DNA from: Escherichia coli
GTDB lineage: Bacteria; Pseudomonadota; Gammaproteobacteria; Enterobacterales; Enterobacteriaceae
DNA: 64,000 bases
Assembly (NCBI RefSeq): GCF_046105845.1
Contig: NZ_CP151004.1
Strand: one strand, 5' to 3'
Positions 4,139 to 54,702 of this stretch are shown here, in pieces. The translations under genes were made by a program, and so were the position numbers. Each line of letters opens with the position of its first letter. The first letter of the stretch is position 1. Below the pieces are notes generated by a model. That model did no database searches, was not told the DNA's origin, and was given only the letters and a program-made list of their open reading frames with translations.

Positions 4139-4628
4139 CGGAAAATATCTGGAAAGCAGATCACAGTAAATAAAAAAACCTGCTGGTGAGGCAGGTTCTT
4201 TTATTTACTATTTTCAGGCCCAACACCGCAGCCTGTGCAACATCGTGTTCCAACGAACGAATTATAACCATCGGTGGACCCCGTTGCAATTAAGATAATG
4301 AGATTTATAATCCAGACGGTTGGGACGTTGCGCCGGATCGGACCAATTTCAAGTCCTGGCTACCGGACGGGTGGTGCTGCAGGTGGTGCCCTGATCCGGA
4401 GTGCAACATCGTGGTCCAACATACGTAAACCAGTATCGACAGGCAGTGTAAGGGTAAGGTGCTGGTGTTGCGCTCCTTAATAAGGAGAGCGGATGGACAC
4501 GCAGACACAAAAGTTAACCGTGCTCATTGCTGTACTGGAGCTATTAGTGGCTCTGTTACGGTTGATTGATTTGTTGAAGTAATGGGCAAATTGAAACGCA
4601 TCTAAGGGGGAATACCGCTTCCCCCTTT
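4139..4628 (+). repeat. Type I toxin-antitoxin repeat unit 1 (zor/orz-like), about 490 bp
   Basis: Near-identical to unit 2 at 4751..5240; begins gaaaatatctggaaag, ends with hairpin aagggggaataccgcttccccctt. Confidence 0.7.
4493..4582 (+). CDS. 29-aa hydrophobic type I toxin peptide MDTQTQKLTVLIAVLELLVALLRLIDLLK (ZorO/ZorP-like)
   Basis: AGGAGA ribosome-binding site 7 nt upstream of ATG; absent from ORF track because it is under 60 aa; sequence recalled from memory as Zor-family. Confidence 0.6.
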   Translation: MDTQTQKLTVLIAVLELLVALLRLIDLLK

Positions 4629-4750: not shown

Positions 4751-5240
4751 AAAAATATCTGGAAAGTAGATCGCAGAAAATAAAAGAACCTGCTGGTGAG
4801 GCAGGTTCTTTTATTTACTACTTTGATGTTAAGTTACTGATAGTGCAACATGGCATCTCAACGAACGAATTATAACCACCGCTGGACCGTGTTGCAATTA
4901 AGATAATGAGATTTATAATCCTGACTGTTGGGAAGTTGCGCCGGATCGAACCCATTTCAAGTCCTGGCTACCGGACGGGTGGTGCCGCAGGTAGTGCTCT
5001 GATCCGGAGTGCAACATGGCGACTCAACATACGTAAATCAGTATCGACAGGCAGTGTAAGGGTAAGGTGCTGGTGTTGCGCTCCTTAATAAGGAGAGCGG
5101 ATGGACACGCTGACACAAAAGTTAACCGTGCTCATTGCCGTACTGGAGCTATTAGTGGCTCTGTTACGGTTGATTGATTTGTTGAAGTAATGGGCAAATT
5201 GAAACGCAACTAAGGGGGAAAACCGCTTCCCCCTTTAATA
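4751..5240 (+). repeat. Type I toxin-antitoxin repeat unit 2 (zor/orz-like)
   Basis: Tandem copy of unit 1 with scattered substitutions; terminal hairpin overlaps the 3' end of yehK. Confidence 0.7.
5101..5190 (+). CDS. 29-aa hydrophobic type I toxin peptide MDTLTQKLTVLIAVLELLVALLRLIDLLK (ZorO/ZorP-like)
   Basis: Same ribosome-binding site and frame as copy 1; one Q/L difference at residue 4. Confidence 0.6.
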   Translation: MDTLTQKLTVLIAVLELLVALLRLIDLLK

Positions 5241-5623: not shown

Positions 5624-8600
5624 TTAATGGAAAATAACGTCGGGTGCGCTTAACGCTTCACTCAAATCAAACACATCAAGTTCGGCAAAAGTGACAGATT
5701 TATTGTCACGGTATACACAAAGAGAACGGAAGCTCATTAGCGCTTTGCTATCAACATTGTAGCGGTTAAAACTGGATGAAAACTTAAGGACCAGCCGGTA
5801 CTCGCCCAGGCCATAGACAAATGCGTCCTCATAGCCTGACTCCCAGCCTTTGTATCGCATTCCCATAAGCTGCCCAACGGTAGCGGATTTACCTTCCCAG
5901 CGAGTCAGGCTGTTACTGGTTGACTCGTCAGGCGTGAGCAGCACCGTGCGGCGCGACAACTGGCGAAAAGGCGGCATAATTTCGTAATCGGCAAAAAGCT
6001 GTGCAAATTCACTGCGCATTTCTGCTGTCATTTCTAACGGGTGGGCAATGCCAATCAGAGCATCCGCAGGAAGGTCAATGGGCTCATCCTGCGCATTGCA
6101 GAACTCCCCCTCAGCGGCCACACGAAAGGCGTTGAGTAAACGACGCGGTTCATTTGCCGGATAAACACCCCATATTAATCGCTGAGTAACCAGGCGGGTA
6201 AAGGGATGATTAACAAACAGAGAACGAAAATCTGCCAGCGACCAGCGTCGGATGGTGCGCAGGGCCGTTTCAAGACGCGGGAGCAGGTTTTTGCTCACCT
6301 GAGTAGCATCTTTTTTTAGCCCTTTTAGTCGTGCCAGTGCCTCGGGCGCTTTCAGTTGATCGTCATCGGCGCGCAACCGTGGAACGCTTTTCTGGCGAAC
6401 GTTTTGCTGATCAAAGATAACCGGGTTGAGGTTTTCATCGAAGCGAACGGTAAACTGCCGGGGACCAAAATCAAAACTCAACGCCTGCGGATCATCAAGG
6501 CCCAGTGTTGGGACTAATCTGTCCGCTAACTCTTCCTGGCTTAGCCCGCGATTTTCTGCGACTACCTGAAGAAATTCCGCCGCGTTATCACGTAAGGGGC
6601 GGGATTTCGCCCGTTGCGATATATGATGCAGCTGCATCAGCGCCATATCATTATTCATCAGGGTAAGGATGTTCAGGCCACTGACAGCACGGGCAGATTT
6701 GCCTTCTTGTGGCCAGGCGAGGATCTGTGTCGTCAGATCCCGAGCCGTGCTTTCGTCACCAAAGAGACTTAACGCCAGAAATGCCCAGTTGTCTTTTGCA
6801 GGGGCACCAGCTTGTTGCCAGGCGGTGAAGAGATCCCAGGCAAAAGCTGCGAGCGTTTGTGGTTGGCAAAACGTTTTCAGTTGTTCCAGCCCGCTATAAA
6901 AACGTCCCCCCTGGGTAAAGCGCAGCATTTCGCCGATAATTTCCAGAGCGTCATCGGTAACAGGTTGATTATTAGTGATAAGGCGCGGCCTGGACCACAT
7001 TTGCGGATGCCAGAAATCAGGGGCTTTTGGCATGCGCGCCGGGTAAATTTCCAGCGGGTTCTGGGTAAGTATTTTTTCCAGGGCTGGCCACACATCAGCA
7101 CGATCCCAGCGGTTTGCCACGGTTTGTAGTAATTCGCCATGTCCCTGTTCGTAAAGTAAACGCAGGGCAAATAATGCAGCTTCGCTATTATCGCTGGATT
7201 TAATGAAGACAAGAGGGATAAGTGCAGTAGCCGTATGTTCCGGCCATTGTAAAATCCACTGGCGGGCCAGATCACGCTGCGCCGCGAAACGTCGCCAGAC
7301 GCGGGCAACGGGCAGGGCCAGTTCGGTTGCGCCGAAATTTAAAATTAACGGAAATGTTTCTTTTGGACGATGTGAAAAAGCCAACAGCAGACCTGGTAGA
7401 GCATCCAATCCGAAGATACTGAGAAAATAGTCCTCACCCGCAGACAGATGCTTTTTCTCATTGATACGTAGCCAGAAAGTCAAAGCCATCTCACGCGGCA
7501 ACTGCGCCAATAAATACAGGTTCCAGATACTCTTTTCCCGACGATAGCGTGAGTAGCTGTCATTTTCCCATATGTTAATTAACACTTCTACGTGACCGCT
7601 GCGAAGCGCCTGTTCTGCTAATTGAGCTTCCGGGGAGCTCCAGCCATTCATGATCTCTTCAACCCGCCCTGGGTAGTAATGCCACTGAACAATGAGTGAA
7701 TTGCGTGCAGCATCCAGTTTTCCGGGGAGTATATAATTCAAAAACAGCCATACATCATCTCCAAAACCCAGCTCCTGTAGTACAACTCGTCCACTTTTAT
7801 GTTCCATGCGTTCCGCAAGAGATTCCGTGCTGAAATAACGGGCAGACTCAGTGGCGGCAAGCCTCTCTCGTTCGCCTGGTTGCCAGTAAACTTGCGGCGT
7901 TAATTCGAACGGTGCCAAATCAAGACGTGGAACTGTCATTTTTTTCTTACTACGCCACGGTGGTGAAACGAGGATTTCAGGCAGATTGCTGTTATCGGTG
8001 CCATCAATAACCGGTTTGGGCGGTGCCGATAAATAACTATTCAGCACTGCCCGGGCTTGAGTACTTAACCACGGCATCACTTCTGCTGCCAGTTGTGGCT
8101 GCGATGCCATCAGCGTTTGTAACAGTGTACGCCAGTATTCATCTCGAGCTTTTTGCTGTGCAGGCAGCTTTTTGTCTTCGATGATTGGATAACCAGGGCG
8201 CGCAGGTGGTTCTTTTAGCGCCAGAAGCTCTGCCAGTGCGGCAAGCGTCGCATGGGGGAAATTTTTACTGTATTTAGCTACACGTTGCAGGCTGGGTTTG
8301 TTTTTATCAGCAACTAACAGCAGGGTGCGGATGACCTGCGGATGGTTAATTTGTACCAGCAGACTGCCGCAATCTTCTTTATGGGCATACATTGCCAGGC
8401 GTGGAACGGCTGCCAGTCCTTGTTCGCGCAAAAGGGCAGCGCAGGCCGCGTAGCCGAAGTGGTTTTCATGCGACATGTAGCTGGCTTCCCGATCGCTAAA
8501 TATATCCTGGCTCCAGTAGCGTTCGAGTTTTTTCACCGCTCTGGGGTCATTAGCAACAACTTTTAACCACTCCTTAGAATGAAAATGAGTCCGCGGGCAT

Positions 8601-9256
8601 TCAAGGTCTACCAACTCATTGGCGATTTCTGGTTTTTCCGGGAGGATCAGCGCAATAAAAGGGCGGCGAACTTTGGTTATTCCTGGCAGTGCGGCAATGA
8701 GTTTGTCGGCGCAACGCTGCCAGCTGCTTTCCTCTGCCAGAGAGAGATGCTTACGCAGTCGGAGATCGAATTCGTTATAGGTTTCTGAGCGATAACCATA
8801 GCCATAATCCTCGTCCTGATACTGCAATGTCACTAGCAGAGGATCACTTTCATAACACCGTGCAATAAACTGGCGTGCAATCACCACCTCAGTCGCATAT
8901 TCCAGTCCCTCTTGTTGGACGATTTCGTCGAGCAACTGTTGGCTATCATTTTGCGCGATACAGGCTAGCGCCGCCATTGTCCGGGCCGGAACTGAGGGTT
9001 TGTGTTCTCCGATCAAGTTGATGGCCTGCGTAATGGCCGACTGCCACTCCAGTGAAAAATTTTCATAACGCCAGACAATGTTTTTTTTCTTCTCAGCTTT
9101 TTGTAGCAATTCATCACCCAGTGTCTGGATGAGGCTTTCAGTGATAACAGGCACTGGTTCGCCCGGCCAACTGCGATGGCTGAGCGGCGTTTTGCCTTTT
9201 TTATATTTCAGTTCCACTTGGGCGTTATCCGCCAGCCACGGTAATTCCTTGTCCAT
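5624..9256 (-). CDS. yehI: 1210-aa uncharacterized protein, paralog of MolR (DUF4132-type C-terminal region)
   Basis: Single long ORF; strong similarity to the adjacent molR reading frame. Confidence 0.85.
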   Translation of the reverse strand: MDKELPWLADNAQVELKYKKGKTPLSHRSWPGEPVPVITESLIQTLGDELLQKAEKKKNIVWRYENFSLEWQSAITQAINLIGEHKPSVPARTMAALACIAQNDSQQLLDEIVQQEGLEYATEVVIARQFIARCYESDPLLVTLQYQDEDYGYGYRSETYNEFDLRLRKHLSLAEESSWQRCADKLIAALPGITKVRRPFIALILPEKPEIANELVDLECPRTHFHSKEWLKVVANDPRAVKKLERYWSQDIFSDREASYMSHENHFGYAACAALLREQGLAAVPRLAMYAHKEDCGSLLVQINHPQVIRTLLLVADKNKPSLQRVAKYSKNFPHATLAALAELLALKEPPARPGYPIIEDKKLPAQQKARDEYWRTLLQTLMASQPQLAAEVMPWLSTQARAVLNSYLSAPPKPVIDGTDNSNLPEILVSPPWRSKKKMTVPRLDLAPFELTPQVYWQPGERERLAATESARYFSTESLAERMEHKSGRVVLQELGFGDDVWLFLNYILPGKLDAARNSLIVQWHYYPGRVEEIMNGWSSPEAQLAEQALRSGHVEVLINIWENDSYSRYRREKSIWNLYLLAQLPREMALTFWLRINEKKHLSAGEDYFLSIFGLDALPGLLLAFSHRPKETFPLILNFGATELALPVARVWRRFAAQRDLARQWILQWPEHTATALIPLVFIKSSDNSEAALFALRLLYEQGHGELLQTVANRWDRADVWPALEKILTQNPLEIYPARMPKAPDFWHPQMWSRPRLITNNQPVTDDALEIIGEMLRFTQGGRFYSGLEQLKTFCQPQTLAAFAWDLFTAWQQAGAPAKDNWAFLALSLFGDESTARDLTTQILAWPQEGKSARAVSGLNILTLMNNDMALMQLHHISQRAKSRPLRDNAAEFLQVVAENRGLSQEELADRLVPTLGLDDPQALSFDFGPRQFTVRFDENLNPVIFDQQNVRQKSVPRLRADDDQLKAPEALARLKGLKKDATQVSKNLLPRLETALRTIRRWSLADFRSLFVNHPFTRLVTQRLIWGVYPANEPRRLLNAFRVAAEGEFCNAQDEPIDLPADALIGIAHPLEMTAEMRSEFAQLFADYEIMPPFRQLSRRTVLLTPDESTSNSLTRWEGKSATVGQLMGMRYKGWESGYEDAFVYGLGEYRLVLKFSSSFNRYNVDSKALMSFRSLCVYRDNKSVTFAELDVFDLSEALSAPDVIFH

Positions 9257-9265
9257 GCTCTTTCC

Positions 9266-12200
9266 TTATTCAAACAGGGCTTCAATATCGTTAATGAGTT
9301 CGCTGGCGGTGATGTCGTCGAGCACGGAGAACTGCGCTTCCTGTGTTGAATTACTCCCCCAGCCATAGCTTTCCGCTTTGCCTTCCCATAGCCACAGCTT
9401 ACTCAAGAGTTGCTCGGCACTGAGTTCGGCTGGCGACATGCCGACCGCAAAACCTTCATCGATTTTCATGATTAACGACCAGCGGCCCAGCGGTTTGATC
9501 ATCCAGCCGATCCAGCCACCGTCCTGCGGTTCACCACGCATCCAGCCTTTATTCGCCAGCCCCATTACCCGACCGCTCGGGCATTTTCTGCCTGCCCAGC
9601 GGGTCAATTCGCTGGCATTGCGCTCGGTTTCTGTCAGGGCGTAACTGTTACGGTCGAGCTGGCGGAACGGCGGTAGCAGTTCGTAGTCGGCAAAAAGTTG
9701 ACCAAAGGCGGCAGCATCCGTGGGTGATATTTCCAGAACGTGAGGAATCCAACAGAGATATCGCCTTCCGGCAGGGTGAAAAGATCATCGTCTGCGGTGC
9801 TGTAGCTGTTATCTTCCGCCACGCGAAAGCAAGCCAGTAGCTCGTTTTCGGTGCTATAAACGCCCCAAATCAGACGGCGGGTTAAGTGACGAACCAGCGG
9901 ATGCTCAACCAGGAAGAGCTGAAAGTTTTCCGGCGACCAGCGGCGGCGCAGGCACATGGCGGATTCCAGCCTTGCTACCTGCTGGGCGGCGACGGTACGC
10001 GCATCTTTTTTCAGCAATTTGTAGCGGTTAACAGCATCGTTTGCCTGTGATTCATCATCGCTTTTATTGGGTTTAGGTAAGTCTTTCAGGCGGCTGCCGG
10101 AAACATCGCGCACAAACGGTTTTAAGGTTTCATCAAAGCTGACGGTGAACTGGCGTGGGCCAAAATCCAGCAGCAGCGAACCGTTATCATCCAGACCGAG
10201 ATCCGGTGCTAACCGATCTTCAAGCTCCGCTACCGTCAGTTCGCGACTCTCGGCAATGTCGGCAATTTTTTCTTTTGCCCGCTCCTGTAATGCTTTGAAT
10301 TTCAGTTTCTGGGCGATCCCGTTAAGCTGCATCAGGGCGATATCACTACCGATAGCAGCGAGAATATCCAGCCCGACGGTGGCGCGTTTATGCTGGGATT
10401 CACCAGGCCAGGCGCGAATCAAAGGCGTCAGTTTGCGGGCGGTGTCGTCGTTACCGAGAACGCCTAACGCAGTGAACGCCCAGCTCTCTTTCGATGGTGC
10501 GCCAGCGGCCAGCCAGGCGGTAAACAGATCCCAGGTAAATTCAGCCAGTGAGTCGGCGGTACAGGCGGCTTTCACCTGCAATAATCCCGGATACAGTGCC
10601 TCTTCCTGAGGGAAGCGGAGCATTTCACCGAGGCGTAGGAGGGCGCTATCTGGCAGTGATTGGGCATTTGCTTTTAATACCGGGCGGGTCCAGATCGATG
10701 GCTGATAAAAGGCCGGAAGAGTGGGGATTTTTGTCGGGTGATTATCTAAGGGATCGAGCGCAAGCATAGCGTTCACCGCATCTATTACTTCCGGCTGGTT
10801 ATAACGCCGGGCGATTTCTTGCAGTAATGGCTGATGATCGTTTTCGATAAGCATACGCAAGGCAGCGCGGGCGTTATCCTGGGCTTCACCGGCTTTGCCG
10901 AGCGCCGCAGGCAGTAGGCCGGTAATGGCGTGTTCCGGGTATTTCAGCAGCCAGGTGCGGGCGTCTTGTCGTAGGGTTTTGAGTTTGTTGAAGGCGCGGG
11001 CGATCAGTGGCGCTAATTCGATAGCCGCAAAATATTGTGCTACAGGCAGAGCTTCTTGTGGATAGCGTGAAAAGGAGTGAATAAAACCCTGTAACCCAGT
11101 GAGTTGCAGGTGCGTCATGACAAACTCGACACCGACGTGTGGCTCTTTACTGAGGACATTCCACGCCTGCGCTGTCTTTTCGATAGGCAGGGCGGCTAAC
11201 ATGTAAAGCTGCCATTCCCGTTGATAGGAGTGCCAGAAGGTTTTAAATTCGCTGATCAGCGCGGAATAATGTCCCCTTTGCCAGAGATCTATAGCAGCAT
11301 CAGGCGCTTTCATATACTGGCCATTATTCCAGCGATTGAAACCCAGACGTGCCAGGTAGTTCTGAATATCCTCTTTTTGGCCGATGTCTATTTGATGTGC
11401 GTGCCAGCGATGCCTTGCATGAATCTCTTTTTCTGCCGTCTCGGTCAATGTGCAGCATGACTCCAACGATAATGGCGTTAAATCCAATACCGGTATAACA
11501 GATTTTTTCTTTTTCGAAAGCCAGGGCGGTGAGACTAATACGGCAGGCAGTAGATCGGCGCAGGCATGGTTTGAGGGCTGTGTCAGTTGTTGCAGGCATG
11601 CTTTCAGCACTGCAACTGCGGGTGTTGAGAGCCAGGGAGTGACCTGATCTGCCAGTGCCGGTTGCGAGATAAGCATCGTCATCAGCATAATGCGCCAACT
11701 ATTCTCTTCTTTTTGCGCAAGAAGTTCCGCCAGTGCCGCCAGTGCCGTGTGTGGGAACGCAGCGCAAGCCTTAGTCATTCGTTCATGGCAGCGTTTAGTT
11801 TTGCCAGACACACGTATAAGTAGCATTAATGCTTGTGGGTGATTGATCTCTGCGAGAATGCTTCCGCAAAGATCAGCATAAGCATAGGGGGCGAAGCGAG
11901 CGATTCCAGCAATCCCTTGCTCCTGCAAAACGGTGACATTCCAGATGCAACCATGGTAATAGTCATTAAAAAGGTCGTACGCGCAATAAGATTCCAGTGC
12001 TTTGAGTAAGGAAGATTCTTGAACAACAAGTTTCAGCCATTCAACAGTTTGGACATTTTTCTGCTTCAGTAACCGTCGTGCGACTTCTTCTGCAATCTCC
12101 GGGCGTTCCGGTAGCATTAGCGCTACCATCGGTTGTTGAACGGGAGGAATATCAGGTAAAGCTGTAATGAATTTATCTACACAGCGTTGCCACAAAGTTT

Positions 12201-24039: not shown

Positions 24040-24176
24040 TCGCAACCAAACGACTCGGGGTGCCCTTCTGCGTGAAGGCTGAGAAATACCCGTATCACCT
24101 GATCTGGATAATGCCAGCGTAGGGAAGTCACGGACCACCAGGTCATTGCTTCTTCACGTTATGGCAGGAGCAAACT
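24040..24176 (+). ncRNA. TPP (thi-box) riboswitch in the thiM leader
   Basis: Contains ctggggtgcccttctgcgtgaaggctgagaaatacccgtatcacctgatctggataatgccagcgtaggga immediately upstream of thiM. Confidence 0.9.
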
Positions 24177-25817: not shown

Positions 25818-26645
25818 ATGAAACCAATGCAACTGAGAATCACCAGTCGAAAAAAATTCACCGCTTTATTATGCGCTCTTGGGCTAATTTCCATCGTTGC
25901 AATTTATCCGCGTCAGACGGTGAATTTTTTCTACTCGACAGCAATTCAGATTAAAGACTACATCCACTTCTACGGTTATCGTCCGGTCAAATCTTTTGCT
26001 ATTCGCATTCCTGCCAGTTACACCATTCATGGTATTGATGTTTCACGCTGGCAGGAGCGAATCGACTGGCAGCGGGTGGCAAAAATGCGCGATAACGGTA
26101 TTCGCTTGCAGTTTGCCTTTATCAAGGCGACGGAAGGCGAAAAGCTGGTGGACCCCTATTTTTCGCGTAACTGGCAACTAAGCCGCGAAAATGGCCTGCT
26201 GCGCGGGGCGTATCATTATTTCTCCCCGTCAGTATCCGCTTCAGTTCAGGCGCGATTATTTCTGCAAACGGTGGATTTCTCACAAGACGATTTCCCTGCG
26301 GTACTGGACGTAGAAGAGCGAGGAAAATTATCGGCAAAAGAATTACGTAAGCGGGTAAGTCAGTGGCTAAAAATGGTCGAAAAAAGTACGGGAAAAAAGC
26401 CGATTATTTACTCAGGAGCCGTTTTTTATCACACCAATCTGGCGGGCTATTTCAATGAATATCCGTGGTGGGTGGCTCACTATTATCAACGTCGTCCGGA
26501 CAATGACGGCATGGCCTGGCGCTTCTGGCAGCATTCCGACCGTGGACAGGTAGATGGCATTAATGGTCCGGTGGATTTTAATGTGTTTAATGGCACGGTG
26601 GAGGAGTTGCAGGCATTCGTTGATGGGATGAAAGAAACGCCTTAA
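25818..26645 (+). CDS. yegX: GH25-family lysozyme-like muramidase with N-terminal membrane anchor
   Basis: 275-aa ORF (alternative start 25827); GH25-like IDVSRWQERIDWQRV. Confidence 0.8.
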   Translation: MKPMQLRITSRKKFTALLCALGLISIVAIYPRQTVNFFYSTAIQIKDYIHFYGYRPVKSFAIRIPASYTIHGIDVSRWQERIDWQRVAKMRDNGIRLQFAFIKATEGEKLVDPYFSRNWQLSRENGLLRGAYHYFSPSVSASVQARLFLQTVDFSQDDFPAVLDVEERGKLSAKELRKRVSQWLKMVEKSTGKKPIIYSGAVFYHTNLAGYFNEYPWWVAHYYQRRPDNDGMAWRFWQHSDRGQVDGINGPVDFNVFNGTVEELQAFVDGMKETP

Positions 26646-26696
26646 ATAAGAAGCAGTGATATACTCCCACCAGACTCCCTGGCAGGAAAAAGACAA

Positions 26697-27443
26697 ATGG
26701 AACAAGCGCATACCCAGCTGATTGCCCAACTGAACGAACGTATTTTAGCGGCGGATAACACGCCGCTTTATATTAAGTTTGCCGAAACGGTAAAAAATGC
26801 CGTGCGCAGCGGGGTGCTGGAGCATGGCAATATTTTGCCCGGTGAGCGTGATTTAAGTCAGTTAACCGGCGTTTCGCGCATTACGGTGCGCAAGGCGATG
26901 CAGGCGCTGGAAGAAGAGGGCGTGGTGACGCGTTCGCGTGGTTACGGCACGCAGATCAACAACATCTTCGAATACTCGTTGAAAGAAGCGCGAGGTTTTT
27001 CTCAGCAGGTGGTATTGCGCGGGAAAAAGCCCGATACGCTATGGGTTAACAAGCGTGTCGTGAAATGTCCCGAAGAAGTCGCGCAGCAGCTAGCGGTCGA
27101 AGCAGGAAGTAATGTCTTTTTGCTTAAGCGTATTCGCTATGTCGATGAAGAAGCGGTATCAATTGAGGAATCGTGGGTTCCTGCGCATTTAATTCATGAT
27201 GTTGATGCCATCGGAATTTCTCTTTATGACTACTTCCGCAGCCAGCACATTTACCCACAACGTACGCGTTCCCGCGTTAGCGCCCGGATGCCGGATGCCG
27301 AGTTTCAGTCACATATTCAGTTAGATAGCAAAATACCGGTGCTGGTGATCAAGCAAGTGGCGCTTGACCAACAGCAACGGCCTATTGAGTACAGCATTAG
27401 CCACTGTCGCAGCGATCTATACGTTTTTGTGTGCGAGGAGTAG
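26697..27443 (+). CDS. yegW: GntR/HutC-family transcriptional regulator
   Basis: 248 aa; N-terminal winged-helix region, C-terminal UTRA-like region. Confidence 0.85.
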   Translation: MEQAHTQLIAQLNERILAADNTPLYIKFAETVKNAVRSGVLEHGNILPGERDLSQLTGVSRITVRKAMQALEEEGVVTRSRGYGTQINNIFEYSLKEARGFSQQVVLRGKKPDTLWVNKRVVKCPEEVAQQLAVEAGSNVFLLKRIRYVDEEAVSIEESWVPAHLIHDVDAIGISLYDYFRSQHIYPQRTRSRVSARMPDAEFQSHIQLDSKIPVLVIKQVALDQQQRPIEYSISHCRSDLYVFVCEE

Positions 27444-28382
27444 TTCCTCGCGCGTTGGCGCACAATCACCGCCCCGATGCCCGACAACCCACGACGCCAC
27501 TGCATTGCCCAGTAATACAGCATCCGCCAGTGGCAGACCAGAGGCCAGCCCGGCAAGTACGCCACCTGCATGACTGTCGCCCGCCCCAATGGTGTCGACA
27601 ACTTGCGTTGGAAATGCCGGAATGCAGCCAGAAGCATCGTTGCTGAAATACCATGCACCCTCTTTATCGAGACGAACGATCAACGGCGCGGCAAATTTCT
27701 CCTGCCATTGCTTGCCAAGTGTTGTTATCTCTGCGGATAAAGCAAAACGTTCGGCGGCAATCTCAGCCTCTTGACGATTGAGTGATACTAAAGGTCGACA
27801 GGCCATGATCCGCGCCAGTAATGCGTCCGGGATATCGCCGATACGTGGGCCAAAATCGATAAACGGCGTCACGTCTTGCAGCTCTTCCAGCCATTCCACT
27901 AACAATTCGCCGCAGAGCGAGGCCAGTTGATAACCGGAAAAATAGAGCAGGCTGCCAGGCGCAACGGTTAATCGTGCCAACCATTGGCGATTCCATTGAT
28001 TTTCCACGCCGCTGAATGACATAAAAGTGCGTTCGCCATCCGGCTCAACCAGCGCCAGACACCAGCCGTTATCACCTTCGGCGTTATCGATCAGGCTGAT
28101 TAAGCCCTCTTTTGCCATCCGGTTGCGAATAATCTCCGCCCAAACCCCCTGACCGAGCGGCAAGGCATTACCCGCTTCGATGCCGAGGCGCTTTAACGCC
28201 ACGGCAATATTCAGTGCGCAGCCGCCAACGTTAACGCTCTGCTGTTTCAGTTCGATATCGCACCCACGCCAGGGGAGGGCATAAGCGTCGGCGATCACAT
28301 CAATGACCGCCGCGCCAATCACCATAACTGGCTGACGCGTGGTTAATTCAGGCAGCAGCGTGTGTAATCGAGCGCCGCTCAT
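27417..28382 (-). CDS. yegV: PfkB-family sugar/nucleoside kinase
   Basis: 321 aa; ribokinase-like motifs GAGD and DTIGAGD. Confidence 0.85.
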   Translation of the reverse strand: MSGARLHTLLPELTTRQPVMVIGAAVIDVIADAYALPWRGCDIELKQQSVNVGGCALNIAVALKRLGIEAGNALPLGQGVWAEIIRNRMAKEGLISLIDNAEGDNGWCLALVEPDGERTFMSFSGVENQWNRQWLARLTVAPGSLLYFSGYQLASLCGELLVEWLEELQDVTPFIDFGPRIGDIPDALLARIMACRPLVSLNRQEAEIAAERFALSAEITTLGKQWQEKFAAPLIVRLDKEGAWYFSNDASGCIPAFPTQVVDTIGAGDSHAGGVLAGLASGLPLADAVLLGNAVASWVVGHRGGDCAPTREELLLAHKNV

Positions 28383-29383
28383 ACCGCCTCCCGTTGTTGA
28401 CGATATTTCGCCAGCGCTGTGGCATAGCGGTTGAAATCAAGCTGATTTACCGCATCCAGCTCCGCCTTTAACGCAGGATCGATAGCGTTAATGCCATGCA
28501 ACGCGCCGCAGATTGCCGTCGCCATAGCACCGATGGTGTCTGTATCGCCGCCAAGGTTAGCGCACAGGACGGCGCAACGGTTCGGGTCGGTTTGTGCCAG
28601 TTCAACCAGCGCAATGGCGCACGGAACGGACTCAATAGTGCTGGTACCTGCGCCAACGACCTGGTAAAGCTGTTCGCTGGCGGATTCAGTGCCGTCGGCA
28701 TTGCGCACAATTTTCAGCGCAATCTCCAGCCGCGCCGCCAATGAGGCGCTGAACGTGGTCGTGCGTTTTTGCTGTGCATGTTGCGCAATTGAAGGCAGTG
28801 AATCAACAATCGCTGACCAGCTTTCTCCGTCAATGGCACGAGAAATCGCCCATGCGATGACTACCGCACCTGCAACTGCCAGATCGGATTTATGGGTCGG
28901 GCTCGACGCCAGCGCCACATCATCAATAAAGGAATCAACATCACGCGCCGGAAGCAAACAACCTAATGGCGAGACGCGCATCGCTGCGCCGTTGGTCACG
29001 CCGTTGTTTTCCAGTTCAGCAACGGGTTTACCGTCGCGAATGGCGTTGAGAGCAATCTTCGAGGTCGGACCTAGTACGTTTTTGTTAAAGGCATCGAAAC
29101 GCAGCGCCCAGTCGAGAATATTACGCCCAATCAGATCCGGATCGATCTTGCCTTCACGTTCCAGTAACGCATCCGCCAGACACAGCGCCATCGAGGTATC
29201 GTCGGTGAATTCGGCGCGGTTAAAATAACAGGCTGCGTTATTCTCCTTTGGTCCAGGCAGAAAACGATCAATCCAGCCAAAGTGTGCTTTAACGCGGCTG
29301 CGTGGCCAAAGCTCGGAGGGCATCCCCATCGCATCCCCTAACGCCTGCCCATAAAGAGCACCGAGAATACGTTCTGTTTTCAT
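28379..29383 (-). CDS. yegU: ADP-ribosylglycohydrolase-family protein
   Basis: 334 aa; 4-bp overlap with yegV. Confidence 0.85.
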   Translation of the reverse strand: MKTERILGALYGQALGDAMGMPSELWPRSRVKAHFGWIDRFLPGPKENNAACYFNRAEFTDDTSMALCLADALLEREGKIDPDLIGRNILDWALRFDAFNKNVLGPTSKIALNAIRDGKPVAELENNGVTNGAAMRVSPLGCLLPARDVDSFIDDVALASSPTHKSDLAVAGAVVIAWAISRAIDGESWSAIVDSLPSIAQHAQQKRTTTFSASLAARLEIALKIVRNADGTESASEQLYQVVGAGTSTIESVPCAIALVELAQTDPNRCAVLCANLGGDTDTIGAMATAICGALHGINAIDPALKAELDAVNQLDFNRYATALAKYRQQREAV

Positions 29384-30657
29384 TTAACTTCCCCTTGTGT
29401 CAACGCAATATCGCGATCATCGACCTTGATAGCCGTAATTTCGTTGTCGGATTCGCGGAAAAAAATCATGAACAGCACGGCGATAATGGCAATCATCACC
29501 GCGCCAAAAGTCCACATCCCGGACCAGTTGAAAGTCAGTCCGTTTACCGGTTCCTGATAAGCGAACATCTTTTCCATCATCACACCGCCAAGACGATAGC
29601 CGAGCAAACTGCCGAAGCCCTGGCAGCAGAGCGTGATCAGCCCCTGCGCAGCGGTACGCATATGCACGGGGGCTTTTTTATCGACATAGATGTAAGCGGT
29701 AACGTAGTAAAAATCGTAACTTACTCCATGCAGCAAAATGCCGAGGAACAGTAACGCGTAGGTGAAATATTCATCCGCACTACCGTAAATAAAGAAGCCA
29801 TAGCGGATCGCAGCGGTGACCAGACCAAGCAACAATACCTTTTTGATACCAAAGCGTTTAGTGAAAAACGGCAATGCCAGCATAAAGAAGATTTCAGAGA
29901 ACTGGCCGAGCGTCATCCAGCCGGTGGCGTTTTTCATGCCGACTTCTGTCAGATAACCGTTGGCAAAGATGTAATAGAACGCCAGTGGCATCGCAAACAG
30001 GAATGAACAGAAGAAAAAGACGAGGAAGTTTTTATCGCGCAGCAGGATCAGCGCATCCAGGCCGAGCATGACTTTAATGTCCATTTTGCCGGTGCTTTTT
30101 GGCGGCGTGTCGGGCAGGAAAAACGCAAACACACCGAGCAGAGCAGAACTTCCGGCGGTAATCAGCAGCGGGATGTTAGTCGGAGAGATATCGGCATAAC
30201 CCAGCATTTGCGGCAAAAATCCACATGCCAGACCGGAGGCAATCCAGCCGATAGTGCCCATCACACGAATGCGTGGGAAATCACGCTCCACATCCGGCAC
30301 GTTGGCAAAAGCGATACTGTTAGTCAGCGCAATGGTCGGCATATAGGTTAGCGAGTAGGCCAGCAGTAACGGGAAGAACCCGGCAAAAGTGGTCTGTTGC
30401 GCAGCGAAATACATCAGCGCCGCACCAGCGAACATCAATACCGCCAGCACTTTCTGCGCCGAGAAAAAGCGGTCAGTGATGGAGCCAACCAGAATTGGCG
30501 ACAGGATCGCCGCAATGGCGGTACAGGCATACGACCAGCCAATTTCTCCGGCACTAAAACCGCTTTTACTTAACCACAACCACAATGGCACAAACCACGC
30601 GCCCCAGATAAACCATTCAACAAACATCATGAACGACAGCTTTGCTGTTGTTTTCAT
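29380..30657 (-). CDS. yegT: Nucleoside:H+ symporter-family transporter (NupG/XapB-like MFS)
   Basis: 425 aa, multi-pass membrane protein; first gene of yegTUV. Confidence 0.85.
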   Translation of the reverse strand: MKTTAKLSFMMFVEWFIWGAWFVPLWLWLSKSGFSAGEIGWSYACTAIAAILSPILVGSITDRFFSAQKVLAVLMFAGAALMYFAAQQTTFAGFFPLLLAYSLTYMPTIALTNSIAFANVPDVERDFPRIRVMGTIGWIASGLACGFLPQMLGYADISPTNIPLLITAGSSALLGVFAFFLPDTPPKSTGKMDIKVMLGLDALILLRDKNFLVFFFCSFLFAMPLAFYYIFANGYLTEVGMKNATGWMTLGQFSEIFFMLALPFFTKRFGIKKVLLLGLVTAAIRYGFFIYGSADEYFTYALLFLGILLHGVSYDFYYVTAYIYVDKKAPVHMRTAAQGLITLCCQGFGSLLGYRLGGVMMEKMFAYQEPVNGLTFNWSGMWTFGAVMIAIIAVLFMIFFRESDNEITAIKVDDRDIALTQGEVK

Positions 30658-30913
30658 CTTTTAATTCCTTCATGACAGGTAATGTAAGGTACGCGATGAC
30701 AATACCATTTAATAATACCTTTTAAATACCTTTGCGGTGAAAACTTGACCGCGGTAACATTTTTTCTGATGAATCGAGCCAACAGAAAACGCTGATAAAA
30801 CATCCAAAAGATGGAAAAACTCGCCTGTAACGACCAGGATTATGATTGCCCGCAAAAGGCGGGCCAGGACAATCCATAGCCGATATCCAATCGGAATTTA
30901 CGGGAGCATAGTA

Positions 30914-31966
30914 ATGACAGATATTGCGCAGTTGCTTGGCAAAGACGCCGACAACCTTTTACAGCACCGTTGTATGACTATTCCTTCTGACCAGCTTTAT
31001 CTCCCCGGACATGACTACGTAGACCGCGTGATGATTGACAATAATCGCCCGCCAGCGGTGTTACGTAATATGCAGACGTTGTACAACACCGGGCGTCTGG
31101 CTGGCACAGGATATCTTTCTATTCTGCCGGTTGACCAGGGCGTTGAGCACTCTGCCGGAGCTTCATTTGCCGCTAACCCGCTCTACTTTGACCCGAAAAA
31201 CATTGTTGAACTGGCGATCGAAGCGGGCTGTAACTGTGTGGCGTCAACTTACGGCGTGCTGGCATCGGTATCGCGGCGTTACGCGCATCGCATTCCATTC
31301 CTCGTCAAACTTAATCACAACGAGACGCTAAGTTACCCGAATACCTACGATCAAACGCTGTATGCCAGCGTGGAGCAGGCCTTCAACATGGGCGCGGTGG
31401 CGGTTGGGGCGACTATCTATTTTGGCTCGGAAGAGTCACGTCGCCAGATTGAAGAAATTTCTGCGGCCTTTGAACGCGCGCATGAGCTGGGCATGGTGAC
31501 CGTGCTGTGGGCCTATTTGCGTAACTCCGCCTTTAAGAAAGATGGCGTTGATTACCATGTTTCCGCCGACCTGACAGGTCAGGCGAATCATCTGGCGGCA
31601 ACCATAGGTGCAGATATCGTTAAACAAAAAATGGCGGAAAATAACGGCGGCTATAAAGCGATTAATTACGGTTATACCGACGATCGCGTGTACAGCAAGT
31701 TGACCAGCGAAAACCCGATTGATCTGGTGCGTTATCAGTTAGCTAACTGCTATATGGGCCGCGCAGGGTTGATAAACTCCGGCGGTGCTGCAGGCGGTGA
31801 AACTGACCTCAGCGATGCAGTGCGTACTGCGGTTATCAACAAACGCGCTGGCGGAATGGGGCTGATTCTTGGACGTAAGGCGTTCAAGAAATCGATGGCT
31901 GACGGCGTGAAACTGATTAACGCCGTGCAGGACGTTTATCTCGATAGCAAAATTACTATCGCCTGA
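30914..31966 (+). CDS. fbaB: Class I fructose-bisphosphate aldolase
   Basis: 350 aa from [19 protein letters not shown]; ORF track adds a 24-codon N-terminal extension. Confidence 0.9.
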
Positions 31967-40312: not shown

Positions 40313-40339
40313 AAAAAATAAGCCCGTGTAAGGGAGATT
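40313..40339. other. Bacteriophage P2 attachment core sequence (unoccupied att site)
   Basis: Exact match to the 27-nt core aaaaaataagcccgtgtaagggagatt as recalled; no flanking prophage genes. Confidence 0.6.
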
Positions 40340-40483
40340 ACACAGGCTAAGGAGGTGGTTCCTGGTACAGCTAGCATTTTATGGGTTATGTTTTTCAGCG
40401 AAACGGATGATAACCTTAATAAATGCAGCTGTATGTGATCGGTTTCTAAGAATTTTCCATCCGGGAAAAATAATCGAAATTAA

Positions 40484-53689: not shown

Positions 53690-53850
53690 TAAGCCGATGA
53701 TTTCAGCGGGACGCTGAAACGGGAAAGCCCCTCCCGAGGAAGGGGCCATAAATAAGGAAAGGGTCATGATGAAGCTACTCATCATCGTGGTGCTCTTAGT
53801 CATTAGCTGGCCAGCTTACTAAGACTACCAGGGCGGGGGAAACCCCGCTC
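53690..53850 (-). ncRNA. Sib-type antisense sRNA antitoxin, copy 1 (approximate ends)
   Basis: Inferred from known ibs/sib architecture; hairpins flank the ibs ORF. Confidence 0.45.
53766..53822 (+). CDS. Ibs-family toxin peptide MMKLLIIVVLLVISWPAY
   Basis: 18-aa hydrophobic ORF with AGGAAAGGG ribosome-binding site; not in ORF track. Confidence 0.75.
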   Translation: MMKLLIIVVLLVISWPAY

Positions 53851-54019
53851 TACCCTCACTCCTGAAAGTATGCCTTCACGATAAGATTGTCAATCTGCAG
53901 GCTTTGCAGTCTGCGATCCTGCCAGCAAATATTCTTTGCGAGACGTTACGCAATAATCACACTGGAAACTATTTTATCCGCAAGTCAGCGATAGACTGCA
54001 TTCAGGGCGAAAGGAGGTA

Positions 54020-54180
54020 AGCCGACGATTTCAGCGGGACGCTGAAACGGGAAAGCCCCTCCCGAGGAAGGGGCCTTAAATAAGGAAAGGGTCATGATGA
54101 AGATACTCATCATCGTGGTGCTCTTAGTGATTAGCTACCCAGCATACTAAGACTACCAGGGCGGGGGAAACCCCGCTCTA
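54020..54180 (-). ncRNA. Sib-type antisense sRNA antitoxin, copy 2 (approximate ends)
   Basis: Inferred from repeat architecture. Confidence 0.45.
54094..54150 (+). CDS. Ibs-family toxin peptide MMKILIIVVLLVISYPAY
   Basis: Second repeat unit, same architecture. Confidence 0.75.
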   Translation: MMKILIIVVLLVISYPAY

Positions 54181-54349
54181 CCCTCACTCCTGAAATTATG
54201 CCTTCACGATAAGATTGTCAATCCGCAGGCTTTGCAGTCTGCGATCCTGCCAGCAAATATTCTTTGCGAGTCGTTACGCAATAATCACAGAGGAAACTAT
54301 TTTATTCACGCGTTAGCGATAGACTGCATTCAGGGCGAAAGGAGGTAAG

Positions 54350-54510
54350 CCGACGATTTCAGCGGGACGCTGAAACGGGAAACCCTCTCCCGGAGAAGAG
54401 GGCTTTTAATAAGGAAAGGGTTATGATGAAGCACGTCATCATACTGGTGATACTCTTAGTGATTAGCTTCCAGGCTTACTAAGAACACCAGGGGGAGGGG
54501 GAAACCTCTC
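54350..54510 (-). ncRNA. Sib-type antisense sRNA antitoxin, copy 3 (approximate ends)
   Basis: Inferred from repeat architecture. Confidence 0.45.
54423..54482 (+). CDS. ibsA: Ibs-family toxin peptide MMKHVIILVILLVISFQAY
   Basis: Third repeat unit; peptide matches recalled K-12 IbsA. Confidence 0.75.
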   Translation: MMKHVIILVILLVISFQAY

Positions 54511-54702
54511 CCTAACCCTCACTCCTGAAATTATGTCACTCCGCCCTTAGTGTCAATCGACGGCTCTCCGTTCTTGCGAGGCGAATAGCAAAATTTTCTG
54601 CGCCGCCGGGCCTAATTCTGAAAGTTTCTTCGTTTGCTCTTATTTCATTATTGCAATCGGTATGATACCGGACCTCGATAATTCTCTAAGAAAGGATTTC
54701 TT

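Follow-up and report, generated by a model that had tools for sequence, protein, structure and literature searches.

Escherichia coli breaks down pseudouridine by means of the transporter PsuT, the PfkB-family kinase PsuK (YeiC) and the glycosidase PsuG (YeiN), which together yield ribose 5-phosphate and the free base. Salmonella carries a further set of this kind, STM4065-4066-4067, with which the GntR regulator STM4068 is said to be associated. These genes encode a permease, a PfkB kinase and a putative ADP-ribosylglycohydrolase (ARH); STM4066 phosphorylates aminoimidazole riboside, and STM4067 contributes to persistence in the gut of pigs (PMC3161100). In regions associated with the staphylococcal cassette chromosome (SCC), the genes SERP2216-2218 form a trio of ARH, NCS1 permease and ribokinase (PMC3637587). 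Here we compare with these systems the yegTUV operon and its repressor gene yegW (ggaR), as they occur in a stretch of 64,000 nucleotides of E. coli DNA (contig NZ_CP151004.1 of assembly GCF_046105845.1), called the window below. The operon, repressed by GgaR, is probably a catabolic route for a non-canonical riboside, and we slightly favour an order in which the kinase acts before the hydrolase.

The yegTUVW locus

The genes of the locus are arranged as follows, in coordinates of the window:

26697-27443, plus strand: yegW (= ggaR), open reading frame (ORF) of 248 amino acids
27417-28382, minus strand: yegV, ORF of 321 amino acids
28379-29383, minus strand: yegU, ORF of 334 amino acids
29380-30657, minus strand: yegT, ORF of 425 amino acids
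27417-27443, no strand assigned: convergent overlap of the yegV and yegW 3' ends, 27 bp, from the ORF coordinates

At both internal junctions, yegT/yegU and yegU/yegV, stop and start codons overlap by 4 bp in the sequence ATGA, and the Shine-Dalgarno-like sequences AAGGGGA and GGGAGG lie just 5' of the yegT/yegU and yegU/yegV overlaps. An earlier sequence-only reading of the window had placed the ORFs, the 4-bp overlaps and the 27-bp overlap exactly to the base, and the domains that it named also stand: NupG-like for YegT (TIGR00889), ARH for YegU (PF03747), PfkB for YegV (PF00294) and GntR/HutC for YegW (PF00392 and PF07702). It had treated the locus as unexplored, which is not so. The operon and the repressor YegW (GgaR) are present in existing E. 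coli annotation, and the binding of YegW in the yegT-fbaB spacer and the repression of yegTUV have been published (PMC10819704). The same locus is b2098-b2101 in K-12, where the overlaps are also 4, 4 and 27 bp, and where the products are annotated as putative transporter YegT, putative ADP-ribosylglycohydrolase YegU, putative sugar kinase YegV and DNA-binding transcriptional regulator GgaR. Each of the four proteins has 1-4 residue differences from its K-12 counterpart (a single one between YegW and b2101). Since the locus is the same and the proteins are near-identical, the regulation published for K-12 applies directly here.

The yegTUVW block is found in 5424 of 5426 complete E. coli genomes, and it is conserved throughout Enterobacterales, in Vibrio and further. 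All four ORFs are real genes, not chance ORFs.

Coupling of YegU and YegV

A profile of the YegU family recovered 80 loci. A YegV homologue adjoins YegU, or stands one transporter gene away from it, in about 70 of these, and the coupled loci span Enterobacterales, Vibrio, Aeromonas, Chromobacterium, Clostridia, Bacilli and Dialister. About 65 of the 80 loci also contain a GntR gene that is YegW-like. Among long YegU-like representatives, 12 of 13 turn out to be ARH-PfkB fusions, and both domain orders occur. These fused proteins are strong evidence that YegU and YegV work in one pathway. The thirteenth long representative, P0161 (692 amino acids), instead has the ARH domain duplicated in tandem.

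No aglycone-degrading enzyme is conserved beside the U-V core, as the ORFs that flank it in Firmicutes are heterogeneous; AraC-like and GuaC-like candidates, so classed by their N-termini, were considered there and set aside, none of them recurring. In 10 Firmicute loci that have no GntR gene, Rfam detected no riboswitch upstream of the U-V genes, nor did it detect one in the yeg region of the window.

YegU, an enzyme of the ARH fold

YegU matches the ADP_ribosyl_GH domain PF03747 at 2.5e-66, with residues 8-302 covering model positions 1-285 of 287. Its best relative in the PDB is MJ1187 (1t5j; 1.6e-29), an uncharacterised archaeal protein, and ARH3 is found at 1e-16. In the 80 orthologues compared, which share 41-97% identity, no substitution is seen at D17, E24, T60, D61, D62, N131, G132, H164 or D280, and 79 of them have D282/T283. 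When residues are mapped through a HMMER alignment to ARH3, YegU is seen to retain all ligands of the ARH binuclear metal centre (T76, D77, D78, D314, D316 and T317 of hARH3; T60, D61, D62, D280, D282 and T283 of YegU) as well as the Glu-flap glutamate (E41 of hARH3; E24 of YegU). In ARH enzymes these residues are metal ligands, the metals hold the distal ribose by its cis 2'',3''-hydroxyls, and this geometry accounts for the selectivity of ARH1 and ARH3 for alpha-1'' linkages (PMC7050489). YegU is predicted to be a competent ribosyl hydrolase.

Its preference for ADP-ribose is another matter. The YegU positions N126 and V129, which align with the adenine-stacking residues Phe143 and Tyr149 of ARH3, hold N, D, A, V or K and V, L, I, M or E, respectively, and are never aromatic in the 80 orthologues. 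YegU scores 79.4 bits against the DraG model TIGR02662 (cutoff 337) and 68.4 bits against the Tri1 model NF041672 (cutoff 490). Because the stacking positions are never aromatic and the DraG and Tri1 scores fall far below the cutoffs, YegU is probably not specific for ADP-ribose. The TNGAAMR loop and His164 align with the NGGAMR loop and His182 of ARH3, which we take to contact phosphates, and this is counted among the hints of a kinase-first order. A search of the searchable literature found no biochemical data on YegU. The fold and the catalytic centre are those of the ADP-ribosylhydrolases, whereas the ADP-ribose-specific features tested, the stacking pair of ARH3 and a match to the DraG or Tri1 model above its cutoff, are missing, and yegTUV should not be filed as an ADP-ribosylhydrolase system.

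YegV, a PfkB-family kinase

YegV matches PF00294 at 4.2e-57. Its best NCBIfam match is the ribokinase model TIGR02152, at 81.8 bits against a cutoff of 299.65 (PRK11142 gives 59.8 against 341), and its best PDB matches are ribokinases as well. Invariant in 72 orthologues are D28, G53-G54, N58, the NXXE motif N202..E205 and the segment G266-A-G-D269, which contains the catalytic Asp of the GAGD motif; the N-terminal D28 is typical of PfkB kinases that bind furanoses. Where the aligned ribokinase reads GGKGAN, YegV reads GGCALN, so that an invariant Cys55 stands at the position of ribokinase Lys43 (numbered as in E. coli RbsK). By its sequence, YegV is thus placed in the PfkB/ribokinase superfamily, but not as a ribokinase equivalog. 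Against the pseudouridine kinase model it scores 20 bits, the cutoff being 540. The aminoimidazole riboside kinase was considered as a close homologue and rejected, its structure being absent from the PDB matches of YegV at E<=1e-10. As late as 2025, YegV was described as an uncharacterised sugar kinase (PMC12506659).

YegT and two interchangeable carriers

The nucleoside permease model TIGR00889 covers the full length of YegT with 653.9 bits (cutoff 446.1). The protein is essentially identical to PDB entry 8ZOJ ("putative nucleoside transporter YegT"), and it matches NupG (7DL9) at 9e-51. YegT is predicted to be a proton symporter of the NHS family (NupG-like) within the MFS. In transmembrane helix 10 its GxxxD motif reads G311-V-S-Y-D315, with G311 and D315 at least 97% conserved in 48 orthologues. 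This motif carries the protonatable Asp, D315 in YegT and D323 in NupG (PMC11979927). The 8ZOJ structure was solved by Xiao et al. (2025), who also reported that isothermal titration calorimetry (ITC) of YegT gave no significant signal with uridine, adenosine, cytidine or guanosine, and that the residues F143, Y318, F322 and N228, with which NupG contacts the base, are not kept in YegT (PMC11979927).

Across the U-V loci the transporter changes. The NHS carrier (YegT) accompanies the core in 46 loci of Enterobacterales, Vibrio and Gilliamella. An NCS1-like carrier is inserted between U and V in 9 loci, from Aeromonas, Chromobacterium, Serratia oryzae, Oceanobacillus, Paenibacillus, Virgibacillus and Dialister. 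In the 17 loci of Clostridia and Lachnospiraceae, a PnuC-family carrier (TIGR01528, 98 bits against a cutoff of 42; PF04973, 2e-35) directly follows V. Each of the three families includes carriers of nucleosides, nucleobases or vitamin ribosides, and NHS and PnuC carriers take uncharged ribosides. That three such families replace one another, and that YegT gave no ITC signal with four nucleosides, points to an uncharged, non-canonical riboside as the substrate.

YegW (GgaR) and its candidate operator

Repressors of the HutC type usually sense a phosphorylated intermediate of the pathway; NagR/YvoA and DasR, for example, are released from GGT-containing operators by such an intermediate. YegW contains a GntR domain (PF00392, 7.3e-16, residues 29-87) and a UTRA domain (PF07702, 2.6e-36, residues 108-242), which assigns it by sequence to the HutC-type GntR repressors, with a winged helix-turn-helix and a UTRA effector domain. 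The solved structures nearest to it are those of YvoA/NagR and DasR.

According to Saito et al. (2024), chromatin immunoprecipitation on microarrays (ChIP-chip) found a single GgaR target genome-wide (PMC10819704). In electrophoretic mobility shift assays, GgaR bound a 190-bp probe upstream of yegT, in the yegT-fbaB spacer, and more weakly, at higher protein concentration, probe-5 (yegT nt 571-869). Northern blotting showed yegTUV as a single 3.3-kb mRNA, and in a ggaR deletion yegTUV rose about 30-fold by reverse-transcription quantitative PCR, fbaB being unchanged (PMC10819704). Binding of YegW in the yegT-fbaB intergenic region and its control of yegTUV, both put forward in the sequence-only reading, are thus already on record, with a repression of about 30-fold. 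A connection to ADP-glucose and glycogen had not been anticipated there. Three compounds were assayed as effectors, ADP-glucose, glucose and ADP, and of these ADP-glucose at 10-100 µM freed GgaR from DNA in vitro, while glucose and ADP did not. Glycogen was 2-3-fold higher in the ggaR deletion, and high glucose raised yegTUV mRNA 3-fold in a GgaR-dependent manner (PMC10819704).

The sequence around the start of yegT contains the following candidate elements:

30733-30725, 30722-30714 and 30709-30701, minus strand: proposed GgaR operator, three direct repeats AA(A/T)GGTATT, from motif and conservation
30741-30736 (-35, TTCACC) and 30717-30712 (-10, TATTAT), minus strand: sigma-70-like yegT promoter with an 18-nt spacer, from a consensus scan (9/12)
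30678-30692, minus strand: inverted TACC half-sites (GTACC ... TTACC), inferred as possible further operator half-sites
29834-29855, minus strand: intragenic pair TTTGGTATCAAAAAGGTATTG (yegT nt 808-823), candidate weaker second GgaR site, from an exact AAAGGTATT match

The sequence of the spacer, read along the yegT strand, is TTCACC-GC-AAAGGTATT-T-AAAAGGTATT-ATT-AAATGGTATT-GTCATCGC-GTACC-TTACA-TTACC. In the predicted yegT promoter, the GGTATT repeats take up the stretch from the spacer through the -10 hexamer to the start region, and all three repeats lie within the 190-bp probe that GgaR binds (PMC10819704). The sequence AANGGTATT has 8 matches in the 64-kb window, where 2.1 are expected, and 4 of the 8, including TTTGGTATCAAAAAGGTATTG at yegT nt 808-823, fall inside the two published GgaR-bound probes. 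The repeat block is near-invariant across E. coli, Salmonella and Klebsiella while the remaining spacer diverges, as in a phylogenetic footprint, and it is also found in Pantoea, Budvicia, Tatumella, Brenneria, Pectobacterium, Providencia, Serratia and Vibrio. A tandem GGTAT[TC]-N4-7-GGTAT[TC] lies upstream of yegT in 42 of 45 loci, compared with 7 of 5416 control windows. The inverted half-sites are kept in Salmonella and Klebsiella, and take the form ATACC in Vibrio, Budvicia and Providencia. The published study gives no motif for GgaR (PMC10819704), and the assignment of the GGTATT repeats as its putative operator is new here.

Because the repeats overlap the predicted yegT promoter, this arrangement suggests that GgaR dimers bound to phased repeats would repress yegT by promoter occlusion. 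The intragenic pair TTTGGTATCAAAAAGGTATTG lies inside the published probe-5 (yegT nt 571-869; PMC10819704). The conserved peptide FGIKKVLL in part dictates the motif there, yet 27 of 47 orthologues have the codon pair GTA-TTR.

Just upstream of the yegT -35, a box TGTTA-N6-TCAAG (30744-30759) is kept across Enterobacterales and partly in Vibrio. It was considered as a CRP site and rejected, its 3 mismatches to the consensus being at chance level (181 matches against 213 expected).

A probable catabolic route for a non-canonical riboside

In the reading that we consider probable, GgaR bound to the tandem GGTATT repeats over the yegT promoter would block RNA polymerase. On derepression, YegT would import the riboside together with a proton, YegV would phosphorylate the ribose 5-OH of the imported riboside, and YegU, by means of two metal ions, would grip the cis-2,3-diol of the ribose and hydrolyse the C1 linkage. 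The net products would be ribose 5-phosphate and the free aglycone, whichever of the two steps comes first. We slightly favour the kinase first, followed by cleavage of the riboside 5'-phosphate, because YegV is unlike a kinase of free ribose (it is below the ribokinase cutoff and has Cys for Lys43) and because GgaR belongs to the repressors that usually sense a phosphorylated intermediate, its only reported effector, ADP-glucose, carrying a ribose-5'-phosphoryl group. By analogy with the characterised ARH enzymes, which are selective for alpha-1'' linkages, ribosides with an alpha linkage or another unusual feature would be a reasonable candidate class of substrate. The sequence-only reading had proposed uptake, glycosidic cleavage and phosphorylation of a ribosylated compound. 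Comparative genomics favours this general scheme, through the adjacency and fusion of U and V and through the three carrier families, but "cleave, then phosphorylate" is not established as the order, and the reverse is at least as likely. The experiments that it had called for are in part published: GgaR does bind the spacer, and the binding of four canonical nucleosides by YegT gave a negative result (PMC11979927).

Several points weigh against a riboside route. No substrate has been demonstrated for YegT, YegU or YegV, and literature searches up to mid-2026 found no biochemical assignment for yegTUV. The published phenotypes concern glycogen rather than nucleoside use, and GgaR was released by ADP-glucose at 10-100 µM, not by glucose or ADP (PMC10819704); yegV was also among the hits when the Keio collection was screened for glycogen deficiency with ADP-glucose in the medium (PMC6195507). 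The Rus loci of Bacteroidetes, which contain ARH and ribokinase genes, are thought to free ribose first (bioRxiv 574913), which is a precedent for the hydrolase preceding the kinase. Some Edwardsiella and Serratia (L040, L044, L045 and L060) keep YegU and YegW and have no YegT or YegV, which suggests either that YegU acts without a dedicated kinase and importer or that the operon is decaying in those genomes. On the side of the sequence evidence, the mapping of the ARH3 stacking residues is a pairwise alignment through a loop with a 3-residue gap, and the yegT promoter is a consensus match only, promoter-like sites in the region being no more frequent than by chance.

The order of steps is the sole difference between this riboside route and a scheme in which YegU would first free ribose and aglycone, and YegV, as a ribokinase paralogue, would trap the sugar as ribose 5-phosphate. 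This scheme, which we rate as rather unlikely, is the order that the sequence-only reading put forward, and it draws on Rus loci, which couple nucleoside-cleaving enzymes, ARH homologues among them, to ribokinases and a permease (bioRxiv 574913). The best family match and the best PDB matches of YegV are ribokinases, yet YegV reaches 81.8 of the 299.65 bits asked of a ribokinase and has an invariant Cys for Lys43. Ribose 5-phosphate would moreover make a poor pathway-specific inducer, while GgaR answers a nucleotide-like ligand. E. coli also already has the ribokinase RbsK. A different end for the same reactions would be the anabolic salvage of a vitamin-like riboside such as nicotinamide riboside, nicotinate riboside or alpha-ribazole, the last a natural alpha-riboside; the ribotide made by YegV would be the useful product, and YegU would trim the excess or recover the base. 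The transporters lend themselves to this, PnuC-family and NCS1 carriers being classic importers of vitamins and ribosides, as do the preference of ARH enzymes for alpha linkages (PMC7050489), of which alpha-ribazole would be an instance, and the ability of Salmonella STM4065-4067 to channel aminoimidazole riboside into thiamine synthesis (PMC3161100). Catabolism, however, better accounts for a hydrolase that would destroy the product of a kinase from the same operon, or even the same polypeptide, and we regard vitamin salvage as improbable. For nicotinamide riboside, E. coli already has PnuC/NadR; linkage to thiDM is found only in Enterobacteriaceae, and no vitamin riboswitch lies upstream of U-V in the 10 Firmicute loci.

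The published model makes yegTUV a module of ADP-glucose and glycogen metabolism, in which YegTUV would import or make ADP-glucose or feed glycogen synthesis, and GgaR would sense ADP-glucose and limit glycogen. The release of GgaR from the spacer probe by 10-100 µM ADP-glucose, and not by glucose or ADP, speaks for it, as do the 2-3-fold gain in glycogen on ggaR deletion and the GgaR-dependent 3-fold rise of yegTUV mRNA in high glucose (PMC10819704). The yegV deletion is glycogen-deficient on ADP-glucose medium, but yegT and yegU were not among the hits of the same Keio screen (PMC6195507). The published study shows no enzymatic link, and in the sections consulted no double mutant makes the glycogen phenotype depend on yegT, yegU or yegV; three compounds were assayed as effectors, with ADP-ribose, nucleosides and ribotides unmentioned (PMC10819704). 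NHS or PnuC carriers are unlikely to take a doubly charged sugar nucleotide as cargo, many Firmicutes pair the same U-V core with PnuC or NCS1 carriers, and glucose does not have the cis-2,3-diol that ARH metal centres bind (PMC7050489). We consider this model quite unlikely to be the function of the operon; ADP-glucose may instead mimic the true inducer of GgaR. Genuine ADP-ribose biology, in which YegU would strip ADP-ribose from proteins or nucleic acids or degrade ADP-ribose or O-acetyl-ADP-ribose, as DraG, ARH1, ARH3 and Tri1 do, seems very unlikely. Membership of PF03747, the sub-cutoff matches to DraG and Tri1 and the conservation of all catalytic residues are what recommend it. These matches stop at 79 of 337 bits for DraG and 68 of 490 for Tri1, and YegU is tightly linked, and in some proteins fused, to a sugar kinase and a small-molecule importer, not to an ADP-ribosyltransferase. 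The "ADP-ribose salvage" variant of the sequence-only reading is likewise disfavoured, as none of the 80 YegU orthologues has an aromatic residue at the ARH3 adenine-stacking positions, and as NHS and PnuC carriers take uncharged ribosides.

The riboside route can be extended into a broader proposal, which we put forward tentatively, as possible rather than probable: the YegU clade would consist of ARH-fold hydrolases acting on a kinase-made riboside 5'-phosphate, not on ADP-ribose, in a widespread two-enzyme pathway with plug-in importers, and ADP-glucose would mimic a ribotide inducer. If so, gut and environmental bacteria would consume a non-canonical riboside by way of NHS, PnuC or NCS1 importers. 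This riboside may be alpha-linked, for example a corrinoid lower-ligand or imidazole riboside or one derived from the host or the diet, and the glycogen phenotype of the ggaR deletion would be secondary.

Genomic surroundings

Over window positions 26000-31200, nucleotide identity is 97.5% to K-12 and reaches 98.9% in the best of the 5426 complete E. coli genomes; because the best match is just 98.9%, the lineage of the window is not closely represented in that collection. On one side of yegTUVW are a thiamine pyrophosphate (TPP) riboswitch, thiM, thiD and yegX, and on the other side fbaB and gatY. The riboswitch (RF00059, 71 bits, 24046-24142, plus strand) lies upstream of thiM-thiD, as expected of E. 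coli biology. A thiamine link of yegTUVW was considered from this adjacency and dismissed, as linkage to thiDM and to fbaB occurs only in Enterobacteriaceae; in Pantoea, Budvicia, Providencia, Vibrio and Gilliamella the block is located elsewhere. The gene yegX, which encodes a GH25 lysozyme-like protein (25818-26645, plus strand), stands between thiD and yegW in the Escherichia loci examined. The Salmonella, Klebsiella, Citrobacter and Enterobacter loci have no yegX there, so that its presence looks like the result of an insertion in one lineage.

In the four Edwardsiella and Serratia loci mentioned above, YegU and a YegW-like regulator lie between phoP and purB, around positions 8001-9800 of the loci. 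Serratia sp. H1w (L061) has the full yegTUVW at the phoP-purB position. The phoPQ and purB neighbours, seen in Edwardsiella, Serratia and Rahnella, were considered as pathway genes and attributed to lineage synteny instead.

At the other end of the operon, yegV-yegW is one of the convergent overlapping transcript pairs ("excludons") described in PMC12288877. The identical 27-bp overlap is found in 29 of 40 convergently arranged loci, and no intrinsic terminator lies between the two genes in the overlap (27417-27443). An inverted repeat, GCGAGGA-GTAGT-TCCTCGC (27433-27451), spans the yegW stop codon within the yegV 3' end. No T-run follows the stem on either strand, and the repeat could form a bidirectional RNA stem in the convergent overlap.

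Elsewhere in the window, Rfam identifies three tandem Sib antitoxin RNAs (53751-54556, minus strand), two OrzO-P antitoxin RNAs (4172-4247 and 4782-4855, minus strand) and the small RNA CyaR (40316-40401, minus strand).

Comparison with known systems

yegTUV is one of the remaining operons of the E. coli core genome without assigned biochemistry, and the YegU-YegV pair reaches from Enterobacterales to gut Clostridia and to the SCC-associated regions of staphylococci. Once identified, the substrate would show what a large ARH branch outside ADP-ribosylation does and why glycogen changes upon derepression, and it would add a further route of nutrition or salvage that bears on colonisation of the gut. 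The observation of the locus is itself already annotated and published; the value of this analysis is in testable hypotheses about the operator sequence, the U-V coupling, the class of riboside and the order of the steps.

By analogy, the closest relatives of yegTUV appear to be psuT/psuK/psuG, STM4065-4067, the Rus loci and SERP2216-2218. The pseudouridine system likewise combines a nucleoside transporter, a PfkB kinase and a glycosidase, and PsuK acts on the intact non-canonical riboside, the order that is slightly favoured for yegTUV. PsuG, however, does not have the ARH fold of YegU, and it cleaves a C-C glycosidic bond. With STM4065-4067, yegTUV has the enzyme families in common, a PfkB kinase and an ARH enzyme, but the transporter family differs, and the two are separate modules, as Salmonella carries yegTUVW too. 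The Rus loci resemble yegTUV in their ribokinases, their permease and their variable ribose-liberating enzymes, sometimes ARH homologues (bioRxiv 574913), and differ from it as polysaccharide utilization loci built on outer-membrane SusC/D proteins and induced by free ribose. The gene order of SERP2216-2218 is that of the NCS1-type U-V loci described here.

The individual proteins can be compared in the same way. YegU has the fold, the binuclear metal ligands and the Glu-flap glutamate of ARH3, ARH1, DraG and Tri1. Unlike ARH3, from which it is distant (E of about 1e-16), it has no adenine-stacking residues and stands in a context of small-molecule catabolism. YegW has the architecture of winged helix-turn-helix and UTRA domains in common with NagR/YvoA and DasR, and the GGT core of its candidate operator resembles that of their operators; the YegW operator would consist of direct GGTATT repeats 11-13 bp apart, whereas theirs is a single 16-bp palindrome. 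The new elements here are the candidate GGTATT operator, the coupling and fusion of U and V, the swapping of transporters, and the conservation in YegU of the di-metal ligands without a stacking aromatic of the ARH3 type.

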